DNA from: a virus
Taxonomy: Duplodnaviria; Caudoviricetes
Direction: 5' to 3' (one strand)
Length of the DNA stretch: 64,000 bases
IMG/VR virus record: IMGVR_UViG_3300028888_000061
Coordinates: 32,001-96,000 of that record
The notes beneath the pieces are model-generated. The model was not told where the DNA came from. It saw nothing but the letters and a program-made list of their open reading frames with translations, and made no database searches. The translations under genes were made by a program, and so were the position numbers. This document shows positions 3,001 to 55,187 of the stretch, piece by piece. Every line of letters starts with the position of its first letter. Position 1 is the first letter of the stretch.

Positions 3001-4492
3001 TGTGAAAGAAATCCATGAAAAAACGACAAACAACGGTGAGGATGCCTACTTTGCAAATTTGGTTTACCTGTTCCGTCTTATGCAGTGTGCTTATCTGACT
3101 ATCGTCGATAATGGAAATTCTGGTGCTGCAATCAGCTTTGATTTCAATGCCATGGATATTCCAAACGCAACAGAGATGGATACAATGTACCGCGATTTGA
3201 AAAGTCGTTTAAGTCGATGGCATGACCTTGTATTTGGTCGGCACTTTGAGTTCAACCTTGGAACATTTGTCACATTCTATAACTACGAAAACAAAGACAT
3301 TGATGGTGCAGACTTTTGGTCGAAACTTGAAAAGTCCTTGGATTGGGTTATGGTGGCAGAAGGTTCAAAGAAGACAGATTACGACATGAAATTCAAAAAC
3401 CTCCTGACTAAAACAGATAAAGGATGGTACGAACCCGGTGAACTAAAACTGGTCACGGAAGGTCCTGTTGACGGTGAACTGGACGACTTCATAATGATTG
3501 TGAAATTCGATTGGTGGCTCGAAAGCACAGTAACCAATCTGCACCATAATGGCAATTTAGGCTCTTACACAGACGGAGCTATAAAGGCAGACAGAGTCAG
3601 TGCATCGCCAAAAAACAATCCAGGAAAGAGTCGTTGGTCAAACACACGCATCGTCAATGGAAAAAACTCAAGTTTCGAGGCGGACAAGAATGTTGTCGAT
3701 AAAGAACTGTCCATGAAAAACAATGTGGACGAAAAACACATAAACGATGTCATGGAATCCGATTACGCAGTGGCTGTTTGTCTGTCTGATGGATGGTATG
3801 AACAAGGAAGAACAGGAGCGGACAGGCACTGGCTGGATGATTACTGGGAAAATCCAGAAGCAGACAATTATGCCTCAAGGGATTATGTCCATGAAACACT
3901 TGCACTCTATAATGACTTTATGGACAAACTGAAGAATCTCAAAGCTGTATCAAGGGACACACAAGCAGCAAATGAACTCCACAAACAGATGTTATTGCTT
4001 GAAGTTATCACGACTGATACGTCAGGCAACGAAATGTGTTGGTCAGCAAAAGCAATTCAAGAAACCATTTATGGAAATGCGGCAAAAGCCATAACATTAT
4101 TACGAAATATTGGAATGACAACTGCGGTATACGATGTAATGCGAACACAACGTGTCGGTCTTTTAAACACAGACAAAATCATCAGCACACTGATGTCGCC
4201 GACAGATGAAATGAAAGCGTTATGGGGAGAACTTACATGGGGCGACTTTTACGAAGTTGTAAACAACACACCGCCTGCAGACCGTGAAAAGGGATGGATT
4301 AACAAGATTCTGCTAAAAAACGGTGAAACAGGATTTTATCCTGCACAAGGATTGCCGCGTAACGGAAGTACGTATCTTGAAACAGATGATTTGGTTGTGC
4401 GTGTAATAGGTTGGTTTTACGGAGACAACAAACAAAAGACAGCTGTTGCTGAGTTGTTTGAGAAAAACGGTTGGGCATATCCGTCACTTTAA
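74..4492 (+). CDS. Large virion baseplate/tail protein with an internal tube-initiator-like domain and a hydrophobic segment
   Basis: ORF track 59-4492; GAGGAG RBS before ATG 74. Segment RSLSLSFTL...PKRCQIYLPG..FEGYISTVQCSF resembles gp48/gp54-type tube domains. Lies upstream of a gp53-like gene. Confidence 0.55.
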   Translation: MAGTSNKSYTTSLYKNQNTALQGVYQIDLNSIQYKKFAGEIENIVKDSVSYTNRDKALDIFRQLLTDYTFKSESYEAWTLSVNQFVDECAHAIKNGYKTIPGTTEDANLEGLNEKIIIKLSPGFKSQTTTMRESKYDDTTIRSVQNFYDPSGDSQEQVSTIVASQVAVGMTSVEGASKTVTVLNSANGNYDMMSSVSSSVKASGVSVQNRTSPDAYVCISDEIYDASGAKNDDATEALQSARDSYAEMQQSLGGMDLYATMNTPTEVEEAGGYYDAVNNVCTSMVPLTKDALKNDVLLPVSNECFVSSSDMCRAEEPNDLKDIKEHTDDTLNHDDGVGIDTMNMDSVEGEWALDRGRFDELLSDKKTEIERTWRVSLDREPIRLANYGQTPSDPLDNTKNATYYEYGLKIVELPPVGVDMATFGEAQEFRVYSRIETVGSFASNANIQNPVPPAGQNAMGFYYTNHNARSLSLSFTLHQQEYPDTPLMHIANILQNFSRPYQYPDLHVEPKRCQIYLPGMTFEGYISTVQCSFKGDLYTTWNDELPQPASGSLQNTTSEQYSYGQLECSISFLIDENITLKQVKSDEKYAIKYEELPAGEQAEVVLLSDAVEQMELPGNPDKNLVKSLFASASDFRISDIQEVREWIKKIKKMVSDNVDKLDSLDADLSTMTDSEMNDLQRYYLADKRSEGTLSFLIMFEAALEYAYTWRNGYKTIAGAVFGESGGEKNFWDERLLTDPGIWDSNYKFSEVFSSDYEKFKNVYPLRNDYVDTTDSSWFSFGSVVQMATLTTMAAICPVAFILSAAIVGTGTIIVAAVNAIKEGINEIGFFFYRLFGLSDREGQFPYEYFSKALTILQGTDTLWGFLNELKDIRPYFQKIKLDFFKTNKLERLLNETKVTLAEKTPLFENGCLVTKFNDKPLLIYPHLQFLTLAYKAIGRGLCEALNNSGTDLAGKAINSAITSVQNAATYGTDGDHVKEIHEKTTNNGEDAYFANLVYLFRLMQCAYLTIVDNGNSGAAISFDFNAMDIPNATEMDTMYRDLKSRLSRWHDLVFGRHFEFNLGTFVTFYNYENKDIDGADFWSKLEKSLDWVMVAEGSKKTDYDMKFKNLLTKTDKGWYEPGELKLVTEGPVDGELDDFIMIVKFDWWLESTVTNLHHNGNLGSYTDGAIKADRVSASPKNNPGKSRWSNTRIVNGKNSSFEADKNVVDKELSMKNNVDEKHINDVMESDYAVAVCLSDGWYEQGRTGADRHWLDDYWENPEADNYASRDYVHETLALYNDFMDKLKNLKAVSRDTQAANELHKQMLLLEVITTDTSGNEMCWSAKAIQETIYGNAAKAITLLRNIGMTTAVYDVMRTQRVGLLNTDKIISTLMSPTDEMKALWGELTWGDFYEVVNNTPPADREKGWINKILLKNGETGFYPAQGLPRNGSTYLETDDLVVRVIGWFYGDNKQKTAVAELFEKNGWAYPSL

Positions 4493-9842: not shown

Positions 9843-9848
9843 ATAAGA

Positions 9849-9919
9849 TGTGCCCACAAGGACTTGAACCTTGATAGACTGATTAAAAGCCCGCTATTCT
9901 ACCTTTGAATTATAGGCAC
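9849..9919 (-). tRNA. tRNA-Lys (UUU), weak anticodon stem, CCA not encoded
   Basis: Acceptor GTGCCTA/TGGGCAC, D arm ATTC/GAAT, loop CT-TTT-AA, T arm CAAGG-TTCAAGT-CCTTG. Confidence 0.75.
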
Positions 9920-9925
9920 ATAAAA

Positions 9926-19593: not shown

Positions 19594-19614
19594 TTCAAAC
19601 TCCTGTGTTCTGTG

Positions 19615-23937: not shown

Positions 23938-24036
23938 GGCAAACTCTCCAAACAGGTTTTCTTTTAACTGTAATGCACCACAGGCATAACGCAGACGCAA
24001 TACACTTTTTAGATACTGCGTCTGCACACTAAAGGA

Positions 24037-33135: not shown

Positions 33136-33235
33136 CGTAAAACTCCTGTATGTAAACGAACTGACAGATTAACAGCTTATCAACACGAACATAACCATTA
33201 TGTTACAATGCATGTTAAGGTGAACTACCCACAGC

Positions 33236-34555
33236 CTAAAGGCGGTGTGCTTCAAATTCATTAGAATTTGATTTATCCATTCTCACGAATTGGACTTCCT
33301 GTTTCAACGAACAGTCCACATCACCAAAAGATTTGGTTCTGCTTCCCTGCCCTCCGCAGGCATAAGTTCCGATAGTTCCTACCGTACCTTTAATCTTGCT
33401 TATCGCATCATTACGCAAATTGATAGCCGCATTGTGATCCCTGCTATGTTCAAGTCCACAAGATGGACAAATCCATTTACGAACGCTCAAATTCTTTACA
33501 GCTTCATTCTTAAAACCACAATGACTGCACAACTGTGATGATGCAAACCACTTATCTGATTTAACAACAGAACAATTATGGAACGTGCTCTTCCATTCAA
33601 GCATATTCACAAATTTATTCCATGACACATCGTTGTAGTTCTTTGCGTTATGGCTGAAACGCATCATGCCTTTAATGTTCAACGTTTCAACACCAATCAC
33701 TTCATAACTACGGACAAGACGGAGAGTTTCTTTCTCCATCCAATCACGCCGCTTATTCGCTATATGTTCTTCAAACTTTGCCAATCGTCGTCTAGCTTTT
33801 TCACGGTTTTTGGAACCTTTCTTGGTTCTCGAAAAGTTCCTCTGTAAATGAGCCAGATGACGTTTTGCTTCTTGCTTGAATGGAACATAATTGTGTGCTG
33901 AGTGATTGTTTGAGTCTATGTAAGCCTTTGACGGAGAAAAATCCAGTCCGATAGCTTGGTTATCACTGCCGGAAAAAGACTTTTCTTTATCGTTCAAACT
34001 TTCATAGACACAACAAATCGAAGCATAACAACGTCCGGATTTAGTTACTTCAACGGTCAAGTTCTTCCGCTTTATCCATTTGTTATGAAACCATGCAGGA
34101 ATATGATTATGACGAAATGTGACCTTACCAATTTTTGGAAATTTCAACCACATTTCATGTTCTGAAAACAGATATTTTGACAGGTCTATTTCTCGAAACG
34201 AGCAACCATCCTTTTTCTTTTTGAAGTGTGGTTTTCCTTTCTTGCCTGCGAAGAAATCAGAGTATGCCTTCTGAGCATCACGACGTGCTTGTTGCAAAGC
34301 AACGGATGAGACTTCTTTCAAGAATGGAAATTGCTCACAAAGCTGTTTCTCTGTCTGGTACTTGAACGCCTTGTAAATCTTGTTCTTTTCATCTTTGTTC
34401 AGGTTACGACCTTTGATGTTATCAGCATAGAATTGTTCCCTTACTTCGACGTATTTGTTATAGACAAAGCGACGACAACCACCAGTTTTTATGAACATCT
34501 GAAACTGCTCTGGTGTAGGGTACAATCTGATTTTAAGACAACGCTTAATTTCCAT
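33236..34555 (-). CDS. tnpB: RNA-guided endonuclease TnpB
   Basis: IRLYPT.EQ..G..RFVYN HTH, GLDF / VETL / RDHNAAIN RuvC, SSQLCS.CG..W.CP.CG. Confidence 0.93.
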   Translation of the reverse strand: MEIKRCLKIRLYPTPEQFQMFIKTGGCRRFVYNKYVEVREQFYADNIKGRNLNKDEKNKIYKAFKYQTEKQLCEQFPFLKEVSSVALQQARRDAQKAYSDFFAGKKGKPHFKKKKDGCSFREIDLSKYLFSEHEMWLKFPKIGKVTFRHNHIPAWFHNKWIKRKNLTVEVTKSGRCYASICCVYESLNDKEKSFSGSDNQAIGLDFSPSKAYIDSNNHSAHNYVPFKQEAKRHLAHLQRNFSRTKKGSKNREKARRRLAKFEEHIANKRRDWMEKETLRLVRSYEVIGVETLNIKGMMRFSHNAKNYNDVSWNKFVNMLEWKSTFHNCSVVKSDKWFASSQLCSHCGFKNEAVKNLSVRKWICPSCGLEHSRDHNAAINLRNDAISKIKGTVGTIGTYACGGQGSRTKSFGDVDCSLKQEVQFVRMDKSNSNEFEAHRL

Positions 34556-41209: not shown

Positions 41210-41250
41210 TATGTATCACAAAGTCGTCATAAACGTGCTTACAGCACCAC
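41210..41250 (-). promoter_or_regulatory. Box promoter between the Rad50 halves
   Basis: GTGGTGCTG-N26-TACATA, spacer ends TTGTGA. Confidence 0.6.
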
Positions 41251-42555
41251 AGACGCTTCGTCGTGAGTACACAAAGGGTTGCCGCATAAAGGGCAAACTT
41301 TAAACTCCGCCAGTTGACTGTCAACGAAATCGCAATCCACATCGAACCCAAGCATCTTCTGCGATGAGACATCAACTTCACGAAACAGAGAGATGGCTAA
41401 GAGACATTTCTCAATAATTTCGTATCGTGACTTTAAGTCAGGGGCATTTCCAAGACGGACAACTGAATTTCGGATATCACGATAGAGATTTACAAGGCGT
41501 GAAATTTTCTCAAGTCTTGACAAGATTTCCATGAACTTGTTTACCGACACAGAAGCAATACTGTCTGACATGCGATAACGAGACAGTTGCTTATTGTAAG
41601 CATCATTCATTTCAACCCATTTCACAACTGTCAGGTAATGTGACAGTGCAGATTCCACACGGTTAATGGGGAATGAAGACACTTCATCACACAGACTAAG
41701 AATCTCACGTGCTTTACGTTGCTCTTCATAGCGAATCACAAGAGAAGACAGCAGATGACGTTTGCGCATCTTGAGCATACACGTGACGATGGAACTGTGC
41801 ATATCTGAATGCTTATGAAGCAATGCAGCACAACGGACACGTTCATCCTGCAACGTAGAAATCCGAGTGAGAATCGAACGAAGACTTTCAATCCGTTCAC
41901 GTTTCATCTTGACCTGCATTACACGTGCATACAAATCAGGAATTGCAGACAGCTCTTTTACACGTGCATCAGACTTTTCAAGTTCAAGCTCAAACTGTGA
42001 AACCAATTCAGTACTCAGCTTTATCTGGTCTGCAATATCTTTCACGTCAGCTTTATACAGGTCATCAAGCCTTGAGACATCGAAACTCTCATGGTAAGTC
42101 AAAACCGAATACAAAGTTGATGGTGAACCGAGTAGAAGGAACGGTCCAGCAAACTGACTGGAAAAGTTAAAATTCACAGACTCAGAGTCAATTTTGACTG
42201 AGGACACTTTCAGGGAATTTGCAACCACATCAAGCTGCTGCCTACCCAGCTTTGTGTACTCTTCGCCGTTCACCACATAACAGGCTTTTCTGTCACGGGC
42301 TTTGGTATCACGTGTATATGTGACATGTGCGTCCCCGGTATCCACATCAATCTGCATCATACCAGAACCATGCGTAACCATAGCATCCGTAAAGCTGTTG
42401 TCCGCAAGACCACGCAAAGCACGCAGTAATGTGGACTTACCGGAAGAGCTTGCACCAAGAATAAGATTGACTCCTGGAACAAAAGACAAGCTCGCCTCGC
42501 GAATAATACCTACGTTTGTCAATTCAACTTTAAACACTGCACTCTCCAAAAACAA
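41239..42555 (-). CDS. Rad50/SbcC N-terminal half ending in the Zn hook
   Basis: GVNLILGASSSGKS Walker A, Q-loop, C-terminal CPLCG; start uncertain. Confidence 0.85.
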   Translation of the reverse strand: MFLESAVFKVELTNVGIIREASLSFVPGVNLILGASSSGKSTLLRALRGLADNSFTDAMVTHGSGMMQIDVDTGDAHVTYTRDTKARDRKACYVVNGEEYTKLGRQQLDVVANSLKVSSVKIDSESVNFNFSSQFAGPFLLLGSPSTLYSVLTYHESFDVSRLDDLYKADVKDIADQIKLSTELVSQFELELEKSDARVKELSAIPDLYARVMQVKMKRERIESLRSILTRISTLQDERVRCAALLHKHSDMHSSIVTCMLKMRKRHLLSSLVIRYEEQRKAREILSLCDEVSSFPINRVESALSHYLTVVKWVEMNDAYNKQLSRYRMSDSIASVSVNKFMEILSRLEKISRLVNLYRDIRNSVVRLGNAPDLKSRYEIIEKCLLAISLFREVDVSSQKMLGFDVDCDFVDSQLAEFKVCPLCGNPLCTHDEASVVL

Positions 42556-42591
42556 ATACCACGCAAGGTGCGTAAAACTTAATACGGGTAC

Positions 42592-42632
42592 GTTTTACCA
42601 CAAAGTCGATATAGAAAAGAGTACAGCACCAC
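42592..42632 (-). promoter_or_regulatory. Box promoter
   Basis: GTGGTGCTG-N26-TAAAAC, spacer ends TTGTGG. Confidence 0.7.
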
Positions 42633-42646
42633 GACAAGTGAGACAC

Positions 42647-42683
42647 AAAAAAAAAGCGTTCTGTGATTAGCAGAACGCTTTTT
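42647..42683 (-). terminator. Intrinsic terminator of the large ncRNA
   Basis: AGCGTTCTG-N7-CAGAACGC followed by a long U-run. Confidence 0.8.
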
Positions 42684-43270
42684 CATGCAATTCGACACGG
42701 AGGGCACAAAGCCCTTACAATCAATGATGATACAAGTAACATCATAAACCTGAGACTTTAAGGGTAGGAGTATTCCCCACACGAAACGTGCGCTCTGGCG
42801 ATTCTGCCGTAAGTCACAAGGTGTGACCATCCAAGTAGGTTACATGGCTTTCCAACGTACAGCCCTTTACGGGAATTGTGTGCAACGAATCTCCCACATC
42901 TAGCCATCCACTCACCACCGGTTTTGTACCCCGGTGATGAACTGTGCGAGCAAGCCCGTAGGCCCGTTTTCCCTCGTCACAGTCAAGCGTCAAAACGAAG
43001 GTGCACGCCACGATCAATCCGTGTTAGTCATCTCACCCAATAAACACTTCTTCAGAAAACCTACCACAACCGTGATAACCTTTCTGAAGAAGTGTGTAGA
43101 GGAAACGTAAGTCAAGTTAAGACAGCCGCGAAGCCAATCTTTGCTTTTTTCTTGCTCGGAAACAACCCACAAACTCAACACATATAAGATCCTGTACGTT
43201 GGAAAGCCATGTACCAAACCCTTCTTCACCTGTCAAATAACTGCGGCAGGTCTAATGTGCCGCAATCTTA
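42647..43270 (-). ncRNA. Large structured non-coding RNA candidate (~620 nt)
   Basis: Own promoter and terminator, 22-bp long-range helix, many hairpins, no credible ORF. Confidence 0.7.
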
Positions 43271-43275
43271 CTGTT

Positions 43276-43304
43276 TAGATAACACAGAAATAAAAACCGT
43301 GCAA
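43276..43304 (-). promoter_or_regulatory. Sigma70-type promoter of the ncRNA
   Basis: TTGCAC-N17-TATCTA with TG extension. Confidence 0.6.
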
Positions 43305-43327
43305 CGTATTTGCTCAACGAAATAAAC

Positions 43328-43723
43328 TCAGCAACAACAGTCAGAACAAATCCGGCTCCAATGAAGAGGGTCAATCTCTGCGTAACCTTCCCAATCAACA
43401 AGGAAATGTTTGCCTTCCTTGTAAAAAATGTCACCTAGCACATTGAAGAACCCTGGATGGATAACCACAACGCCGGTATAGTCCAAGAGGAATGAAAACA
43501 GCACCGTATCATTCCTGTTCATAGGCAGTTCAGAAATGACAAGGAAATGTCCGTCAATCACATCATAAACCACACGTGACATCACACAATGAAGCGACAA
43601 CCACTCACGCATGATGCAAGCATACTGAAAACAGTTGCCTGTAAGCCATGTGGATTCGTCAGGGAAACGTCTGGAACGGTAACTAAAATATTCAGATTCT
43701 AGTTCAGAGAGGCATTGAATCAT
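43328..43723 (-). CDS. Hypothetical protein (GNC..YA...GHF, papain/transglutaminase-like)
   Basis: ORF and motif. Confidence 0.6.
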   Translation of the reverse strand: MIQCLSELESEYFSYRSRRFPDESTWLTGNCFQYACIMREWLSLHCVMSRVVYDVIDGHFLVISELPMNRNDTVLFSFLLDYTGVVVIHPGFFNVLGDIFYKEGKHFLVDWEGYAEIDPLHWSRICSDCCC

Positions 43724-44046
43724 TGCAGTAACTCACGAAGATTCTTATGACGCAGAAATTTGTACGCCAAATCCTGTGCATAATGCCATAACAATATGTC
43801 CTGCGTTGGATAAGGAAGCTGAACAATCCAGTGAAATTCGTCAGCGTCTTCGTCTGTAAACGGACAAGGAACACCGTCAAAACATGCTTTCATCCATGCA
43901 TCGAAACGCATGGAAATGTTTGCGAAATTAGAGTGGTAAACAATCCCACTACGTTTATCCGTAATGGTCAATAAAGGTGCATAAAACGAATCTACCGACA
44001 GAACAAAATTCGTCATTTCAAACGGAAACACGAAATTCATATACAA
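43720..44046 (-). CDS. Hypothetical protein
   Basis: Coupled ORF. Confidence 0.6.
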   Translation of the reverse strand: MYMNFVFPFEMTNFVLSVDSFYAPLLTITDKRSGIVYHSNFANISMRFDAWMKACFDGVPCPFTDEDADEFHWIVQLPYPTQDILLWHYAQDLAYKFLRHKNLRELLQ

Positions 44047-54159: not shown

Positions 54160-54600
54160 TTGGTGCGGGCAGAGGGTTAAAACCCCACCAAAGAATTCGA
54201 GGTGCATATCCACAGGGTGCGGGCAGAAGGTTAAAATCAAAGTAACGACCACAAACAGGAGCGAAACAAGGGTCACGACTACGTTCTTGATGACAGCATT
54301 GTTCAAACCATGACTATGTTTTTCCACAGGATAATTTTTCAGGATGCGATGCTAGAGCATAAGTTACGACTACGATCTTAACGACAGGATGCTGATGCTT
54401 ACGCATGACATGACTTGACTACGTTCTTGATTACAGGTGAAGACTTTACAGGAATTCGAGCTTGAACGCTCTTTGACATGACTATGTTCTTTACTACAGG
54501 ATGTGATGCTTACGCATGGCATGGCATGACTATGTTCTTTCAACAGGATGATTTCAGGATGTGATGCTAAAACATGACATGGCATGACTAAGAACGTCAC
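54160..54600. repeat. Iteron-like direct repeats
   Basis: GGTGCGGGCAGA(G/A)GGTTAAAA twice; about six copies of GACTA(C/T)GTTCTT-N3-5-ACAGG, several followed by GATGCT. Confidence 0.8.
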
Positions 54601-54880: not shown

Positions 54881-55075
54881 AAAAAGCTGAAGAAAAAGTG
54901 CGAATTTTGGTTGAGGACAAATTTTATGGAAGTTAATACGGCTGGCATGATTTTTGCTAGAAGACTTGTACGTAAGTACTCATCCACCTGTGAACTATGA
55001 TTTTGGTTAAAGACCGATTCAGGCATATTCCTGTTTTGCTTTACTTTGAATGGAATTTGCTGTATCAGAAAATTT

Positions 55076-55126
55076 GTGTGGCTAGGGTAGCTACCGAAAA
55101 GACGTAAAGCCTAACGTCCGCCACAC
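55076..55126 (+). promoter_or_regulatory. Three-way-junction leader RNA, copy 2
   Basis: GTGTGGC-TAGG-N7-CCGAAAA-GACGT/ACGTC-C-GCCACAC. Confidence 0.6.
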
Positions 55127-55187
55127 TCTCTTTTTAGAGATGACTCAGGCACGTATTTGAGGCTGAATACCGTTAAAATTTCACGCC

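Follow-up and report, generated by a model that had tools for sequence, protein, structure and literature searches.

What is encoded by the 772-nt intergenic gap that separates the stop codon of a 131-aa ORF from the start of an ATPase gene in an uncultured phage? The gap lies in the window, the whole 64,000-nt stretch of DNA analysed here, which corresponds to bases 32001–96000 of an IMG/VR virus record of 138,361 bp (43% G+C, ~72% complete) and in which the minus strand carries all genes from ~33 kb to 52 kb. A preliminary description, made from the sequence alone, had placed in the gap a free-standing, large structured non-coding RNA (ncRNA) of a ROOL- or GOLLD-like class or of a new one. 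Covariation, together with a promoter and a terminator of the RNA's own, bore this out in favour of a new family, and we consider it highly probable that a stand-alone gene occupies the gap and encodes a ~620-nt highly structured ncRNA, the founder of a small new family of phage RNAs.

The transcription unit and its distribution

The predicted primary transcript of ~622 nt occupies positions 42647–43269 on the minus strand, with an inferred start ~7 nt past the −10 element and its end in the terminator's U-tract. The promoter that had been read as TTGCAC-17-TATCTA at 43304–43276 is present: a −35-like hexamer, TTGCAC, lies at 43299–43304 (−) and an extended −10 element, TGT-TATCTA, at 43276–43284 (−), with TATCTA at 43281–43276 and the TG extension at −15/−14. 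In five of the seven core lineages (window, L001, L007, L014 and L005) TTGCAn stands exactly 17 nt before TATCTA, the sequence of the spacer being variable; G-TATCTAAAC is invariant in five lineages, and L008 has TATCAA. Compared with the sigma-70 consensus the promoter is poor, matching at 6/12 positions, and a simple promoter scan missed it. The strong terminator reported at 42683–42647 was also found, as an intrinsic terminator (42647–42684, −) with a 14-bp stem at 42684–42650 and then a T-run giving U9. Between the window and L001 the stem shows one compensatory change, A-U to G-C, and the terminators of L007, L014, L005, L008, L009 and L010 lie at the same place and are non-homologous, so that a terminator closes the RNA unit in every lineage, its sequence often being unrelated.

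Just past the terminator, and outside the RNA, another transcription unit opens with a GGTGCTGT box (42623–42630, −). In 7/8 members (window, L001, L005, L007, L008, L009 and L014) a TGGTGCT(GT) box lies between the RNA terminator and the next gene, whereas none was seen in L010; the box probably serves as a phage-specific promoter element and belongs to a class unlike the RNA's own promoter. Since the terminator is followed by this box ahead of the next gene, the RNA constitutes a separate unit, and, judging by these elements, it is read from a host-type promoter unlike those of the neighbouring genes. Two more copies of the −10-like block GTATCTAAA occur upstream of protein genes, at window position 24015 (−) and record position 19596 (+). 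The genes behind both copies have GGAGAG-type ribosome-binding sites, indicating that the host uses Shine–Dalgarno initiation, which argues against a Bacteroidota host.

Relatives were traced via a 22-mer and the flanking ATPase, and these led to further contigs of uncultured phages with a homologous interval in the same position. Seven core lineages were defined (window, L001, L007, L014, L005, L008 and L009), with L010 as an eighth locus. The six further core lineages were matched by nhmmer over the whole length of the transcript, with E values from 1e-113 to 1e-182. The L001 interval, which is 87% identical to the window across the aligned interval, recurs without change in L002, L003, L004 and L016. 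The DNA runs that contain the RNA stretch come from sheep, goat and bovine gut metagenomes of 11 studies, and the phages that carry it are uncultured, very large (~230–240 kb) and inhabit the guts of sheep, goats and cattle; the L005 record, of 227,618 bp, is 96% complete. Scans of IMG/VR, JGI metagenomes and GTDB genomes with patterns of the invariant blocks returned the same three or four phage lineages only, the sole GTDB match (L017, a Bacteroidales MAG) being rejected as a chance match within a coding region, and blastn of the region against 50,697 GenBank phages gave no match.

L010 was missed by nhmmer. Its order of elements is a 5′ hairpin, UUUCUUUGAAAC, a long-range helix (16 bp uninterrupted, lengthened by flanking pairs), a UGUAAGGGC-loop-GCCCUCU hairpin and a terminator, and by this architecture alone it is a probable divergent member. 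The ATPase next to the RNA is 49–95% identical to that of the window in the core relatives and 35% identical in L010. ATPase relatives at 25–35% identity (L011, L012, L013 and L018–L021) have neither a gap nor an nhmmer match, indicating that the RNA is confined to a sub-clade.

The 3′ neighbour of the RNA, which served as a synteny anchor outside it, is the SbcC/Rad50-like ATPase gene (41239–42555, −; Pfam AAA_23, PHROG exonuclease/SbcC), and an SbcD-like phosphoesterase gene comes after it. The 5′ neighbour, likewise outside the RNA, is the 131-aa protein (43328–43723, −), which has no assigned family, adjoins the RNA in 7/7 core lineages with 37–88% identity and is not present in L010–L013. 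The motifs GNC, DGHFL and a C-terminal DCC are invariant in the seven core lineages. Its AlphaFold2 model is confident (pLDDT 91.5), had no counterpart in the PDB at E ≤ 0.001 and gave no hint of RNA binding; papain-like proteases and deubiquitinases are among the weak rows of the structure search, and Pfam gave just faint YunG-like and transglutaminase-like matches. The protein may be a small Cys-His enzyme, and its tie to the RNA may be mere synteny. Further upstream, positions 3130–3819 of L007 hold a TnpB C-terminal fragment (Pfam Cas12f1-like_TNB) joined to 55 N-terminal residues of a homologue of the 108-aa ORF found at window 43720–44046. The fused homologue sits two genes upstream of the RNA, pointing to an IS insertion there, and related tnpB copies occur elsewhere in the window's own record, e.g. 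at window 33221–33784. At window 55075–55140 (+), an Rfam match to int-alpA RNA reached 37.5 bits, barely over the gathering threshold of 35.8 bits.

Fold, covariation and RNA-library evidence

The minus strand of the locus folds with a minimum free energy (MFE) of −243 kcal/mol (z = −6.0 against dinucleotide shuffles), while the opposite strand reaches −203 kcal/mol, i.e. 40 kcal/mol worse; among the relatives, z was −13.5 for L005 and −7.6 for L010. To this we added an alignment of the seven core sequences (MAFFT), of which ~5 are well separated. The RNAalifold consensus contains 116 pairs, with compensatory changes in 55. When 111 pairs were counted, 91.1% of 764 cells were paired, compared with 40–42% when the partners were slid by 1–3 columns, the paired-cell figure being inflated because these very sequences had served to derive the consensus structure. 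Double changes were found at 55/111 pairs and at 8–24 after sliding by 1–3 columns, and in neither measure did any of 500 shuffles (0/500 for each) reach the observed value. The pair cells include 126 G.U and 16 A.C combinations, and this excess of G.U indicates that the pairing takes place at the RNA level, on the minus strand, and not in a DNA palindrome.

From the 5′ end, the transcript begins with hairpin P1 (43239–43267, −), which occupies a boxB-like position, appears in the MFE fold and is helix 1 of the consensus; compensatory changes were found in 5/5 of its pairs, and 74% of its cells are paired. The perfect 22-bp helix that had been proposed to close a ~330-nt domain was confirmed: its leader (5′) strand at 43192–43213 (−) is complementary at 22/22 positions to its trailer (3′) strand at 42841–42862 (−), the two arms lying 329 nt apart in the window, and it covaries. 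As consensus helix 3 it has 17 pairs, 100% of cells paired and compensatory changes in 8 pairs, and it runs without interruption for 20–22 bp in 7/7 core lineages despite sequence turnover. The multi-helix domain that it closes measures roughly 330 nt, with 351–373 nt enclosed across these lineages, and is split by a long internal hairpin of 16–21 bp (43042–43097, −; consensus helix 6). In the window this hairpin consists of a 16-bp stem, uninterrupted in the MFE fold, and a distal stem; the 15-bp repeat noted earlier at 43044–43058 and 43081–43095 is perfect (15/15). Helix 6 has 20 pairs, with compensatory changes in 11, and L005, L008 and L009 have an entirely different sequence here, yet their stem still measures 16–21 bp.

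The most conserved core (42862–43036, −; helices 8–14) comprises the blocks UGAGAUGnnUAnCnCGGnUUGAUCGnGG and CACAnnUCCnGUAnAGGGCUG and a subdomain closed by helix 9. It is followed by a 3′ domain of small hairpins (42690–42840, −; helices 15–17) with an invariant ACUCCU and a AUAAGGGC-loop-GCCCUCC hairpin (42701–42715), into which ~100 nt are inserted in L008 and L009. Covariation was also detected in helices 5, 9, 11 and 13. Among the smaller stems of the preliminary description, the 5′ hairpin, CACCGG/CCGGTG and AGGGC/GCCCT recur in both the MFE and the consensus folds, and the remaining small 3′ stems are present where it had placed them. In L008, at ~2230–2290, two hairpins take the place of the core's variable hairpin; their loops, GGUUCGACUCC and GAGUUCGAGUCUC, resemble T-loop modules, the kind that mediates tertiary contacts in large RNAs, and ARAGORN found no tRNA in these hairpins.

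Two metatranscriptomic runs from one sheep-gut sample (one study) contained contigs 100% identical to 42862–43036 and to 42889–43032, the latter with Illumina adapter sequence at both ends. Their depths were 125 and 173, compared with 2–5 where contigs from these runs fall on neighbouring genes of the phage, contig depth being a poor measure of expression, as contigs can neither rank expression nor show ends. These data hint that the conserved core exists as an abundant RNA. The 5′ leader and the 3′ domain are uncovered by contigs, as is the inner domain in its 5′ half, and runs X21 and X22 had no contig within the RNA; such gaps prove nothing, so they are no basis for the idea that only a ~175-nt core is stable, which is an inference.

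Alternative explanations

ROOL, a possible relative, often adjoins tRNA genes in phage and prophage DNA. The name stands for 'rumen-originating, ornate, large', and the RNA forms RNA-only assemblies, while GOLLD is a large ornate phage-associated RNA that accumulates in the lytic cycle (PMC12286853). With ROOL (RF03087) the present RNA shares a length of ~600 nt, carriage by phages or prophages, the rumen habitat, many conserved stems and a free-standing gene (PMC12286853), and with GOLLD it shares being large, ornate and phage-associated. The size class, carriage by a phage, habitat and many-stem architecture would thus fit a known Rfam family, be it ROOL, GOLLD or another, of which this RNA is a divergent member missed by the models. 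Against this, the searches of Rfam 15 found no match in the RNA region of the window at the gathering score, nothing sensible in 42400–43500 (1.1 kb) with permissive filters at E ≤ 10, and no match, ROOL and GOLLD included, in six homologous loci at E ≤ 1. Nor is there a tRNA neighbourhood: ARAGORN and Rfam detected no tRNA or tmRNA at the RNA and no tRNA in the six homologous loci, and the sole tRNA of the 64-kb window (9847–9920) is 33 kb away. Unlike ROOL, whose covariance model matched none of 7 members, the RNA is closed by a helix that runs for 20–22 bp without interruption and carries a boxA-like element in its 5′ part; GOLLD, in turn, is larger (~800 nt) and differs in habitat and neighbourhood, and its model gave no match. 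Membership of a known family is therefore very improbable, and on these comparisons the RNA is best classed as a new family, not a member of ROOL or GOLLD, of the large ornate phage ncRNA kind. None of the outcomes that the preliminary description had named as refuting occurred: the homologues keep no reading frame and Rfam gave no family, and covariation in seven lineages supports the fold. Nor does the RNA appear to be a cis-acting leader or attenuator of the downstream SbcC/Rad50-SbcD recombination genes instead of acting in trans. At every locus it precedes the ATPase gene on the same strand, as such a leader would; however, a strong terminator and a separate conserved GGTGCT-box element intervene, an extra ORF stands between RNA and ATPase in L005 and L010, the promoter type is unlike that of the neighbouring genes, and a conserved multi-domain fold of ~620 nt is far beyond known attenuators, making this reading improbable.

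The perfect 22-bp inverted repeat with arms 329 nt apart, situated within a replication/recombination module beside a gene pair resembling palindrome nucleases, could also suggest a DNA-level element. Candidates are a replication origin, a site of recombination or cruciform formation, and a miniature transposon whose ends are the 22-bp repeats. Yet the element has no paralogue elsewhere in the 138-kb record, being single-copy, and it occupies the same locus in all relatives with the flanks outside the repeat co-conserved. Covariation of its arms involves G.U wobbles; in DNA, or read on the other strand, these would appear as A.C mismatches. The cumulative GC skew reaches its minimum ~11 kb away, and RNA-library contigs cover the inside of the element; we regard a DNA-level role as extremely improbable. 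The lowest probability falls to the encoding of one or more small proteins with incidental structure, which we give next to no weight. Mechanical sense-strand ORFs of 49–71 codons do exist in the RNA, but no ORF is conserved among the homologues in start, frame or length, close relatives carry 1- and 2-nt indels inside these ORFs, and the substitutions concentrate in loops and compensating pairs; none of the ORFs is preceded by a ribosome-binding site, so the earlier remark that the region lacks a ribosome-binding-site-led ORF holds, with no conserved reading frame among the homologues.

Resemblance to pre-rRNA and a possible maturation route

For the stand-alone ncRNA gene, a pre-rRNA-like layout (boxA-like element and processing-type helix), which the preliminary description had not noticed, suggested a route of biogenesis. 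After the 5′ hairpin, a (Y)CUUGAAA block is found in 7/8 members and is barely recognizable in L009. In the window it forms part of the boxA-like element GUUAUUUGACA (43231–43241, −), a block conserved across members; it reads GUUCUUUGAAA in L001, CCUUGAAAA in L007, L014 and L008, and UUUCUUUGAAAC in L010, and was also given as CCUUGAAA(A/G) in L007, L014, L005 and L008. The boxA consensus of gamma-proteobacteria is GYTCTTTAANA, in which C4 is critical (PMC5725501), and a conserved boxA-type sequence, GTTCTTTGAAAA, with the primer GTTCTTTGAAAACTGAAT, has been described in the rRNA spacer of mollicutes (PMC4312986). The block resembles both GYTCTTTAANA (PMC5725501) and GTTCTTTGAAAACTGAAT (PMC4312986), although it is short and imperfect; in the window, A takes the place of the critical C4, the consensus being one from other bacteria that may not be the host's.

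The order P1 hairpin, block, 12–17 nt and 20–22-bp helix is kept in seven lineages. In rrn operons, boxB and boxA are followed by 18–19 nt, boxC and the leader strand, and the leader–trailer helix, which bears the RNase III site, must be >17 bp (PMC10250234). The RNA therefore resembles a bacterial pre-rRNA in the order of its elements and in having a long helix of >17 bp, with strands hundreds of nucleotides apart, around an RNA. In contrast to pre-rRNA, its spacer is 12–17 nt instead of the 18–19 nt of enterobacterial rrn, its boxA-like block is imperfect and the enclosed RNA of ~330 nt has no significant similarity to rRNA. A likeness of two core blocks and the 5′ block to rRNA (universal 16S segments), striking by eye, was rejected as lying at chance level: the best local scores against E. 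coli rrnB were 23–30, compared with a shuffle mean of 23–24 and maximum of 28–30, the family profile had no nhmmer match in E. coli rrnB, and no SSU or LSU match was found in Rfam. Weighing likeness and difference, we put at slightly below even the chance that the unit is built like a pre-rRNA, with boxA/Nus transcription and RNase III maturation.

The route would begin with the hairpin and the boxA-like element loading host NusB/NusE and other Nus factors onto RNA polymerase. These factors would keep Rho from acting on a transcript that is long and untranslated, and would help its distant 5′ and 3′ strands to meet, a role of the host Nus machinery that we hold to be plausible, if somewhat on the doubtful side. 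RNase III would then cut the 20–22-bp long-range helix and the 16–21-bp internal hairpin. By the length criterion for this enzyme (~20 bp, or about two turns, uninterrupted), the long-range helix measures 20–22 bp in seven lineages and 16 bp in L010, and cleavage of both long helices by host RNase III has, by analogy with rRNA processing, roughly even chances. Neither this record nor three relatives, the 96%-complete one among them, contain an RNase III gene, so processing would depend on the host; a reverse-transcriptase gene is likewise absent from this record.

Phage early transcripts carry RNase III processing hairpins, e.g. R1.1 of T7. The present RNA is like the R1.1 type in that phage helices of about two turns occur in early transcripts made by host RNA polymerase, and differs from it in that those hairpins sit between protein genes and yield mature mRNAs, whereas here the helices bracket a conserved non-coding core.

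Cleavage would free a stable inner RNA of ~175–330 nt holding the invariant blocks, and the matured core would accumulate early in infection and act in trans. No catalytic or base-pairing target of the core was identified, and a search of the phage record for antisense targets of the conserved single-stranded blocks returned none, yielding just an unrelated 9-mer that is over-represented. With low confidence, we lean to a core that would act in trans as a decoy or scaffold binding a host or phage protein, or by self-assembly as in ROOL and GOLLD. In the boldest version, drawn from the rRNA analogy and likewise of low probability, the phage would have copied the rRNA production line (boxA/Nus, leader–trailer helix and RNase III) to mass-produce a new kind of stable RNA core, with invariant blocks that serve as a ribozyme, build an RNA-only assembly or bind a central host machine as a high-affinity decoy. 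If true, it would represent a maturation pathway and a function undescribed for any phage non-coding RNA.

Beyond GOLLD, ROOL, OLE and raiA, only a handful of structured bacterial or phage RNAs of >400 nt have solid covariation, and each RNA of this group opened new RNA structural biology. The present family adds an unusually clean gene structure, RNA-library support and a biogenesis hypothesis (Nus/boxA and RNase III) that is open to testing, and heterologous expression could probe the RNA without culture of the phage. It points to a possibly abundant RNA product of widespread jumbo phages of the ruminant gut.

The 9-mer CAGGTGAAG has 14 copies, on both strands, in the whole 138-kb record, compared with ~1 expected; examples lie at window positions 43224–43232, 31376, 54434 and 62622, most copies are inside the coding regions of unrelated genes, and in nine cases the 9-mer is flanked by A on both sides (11-mer ACAGGTGAAGA; eight end in AC). 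The pattern G[TC]T[CA]TTTGA[AC]A occurs in four copies in the record, compared with ~0.5 expected. A near-consensus boxA-like sequence, GCTCTTTGACA, is located at window 54468–54478 (+), at the strand switch and GC-skew minimum where rightward transcription starts, and from its sequence and position it could be a nut-like site for the rightward arm.
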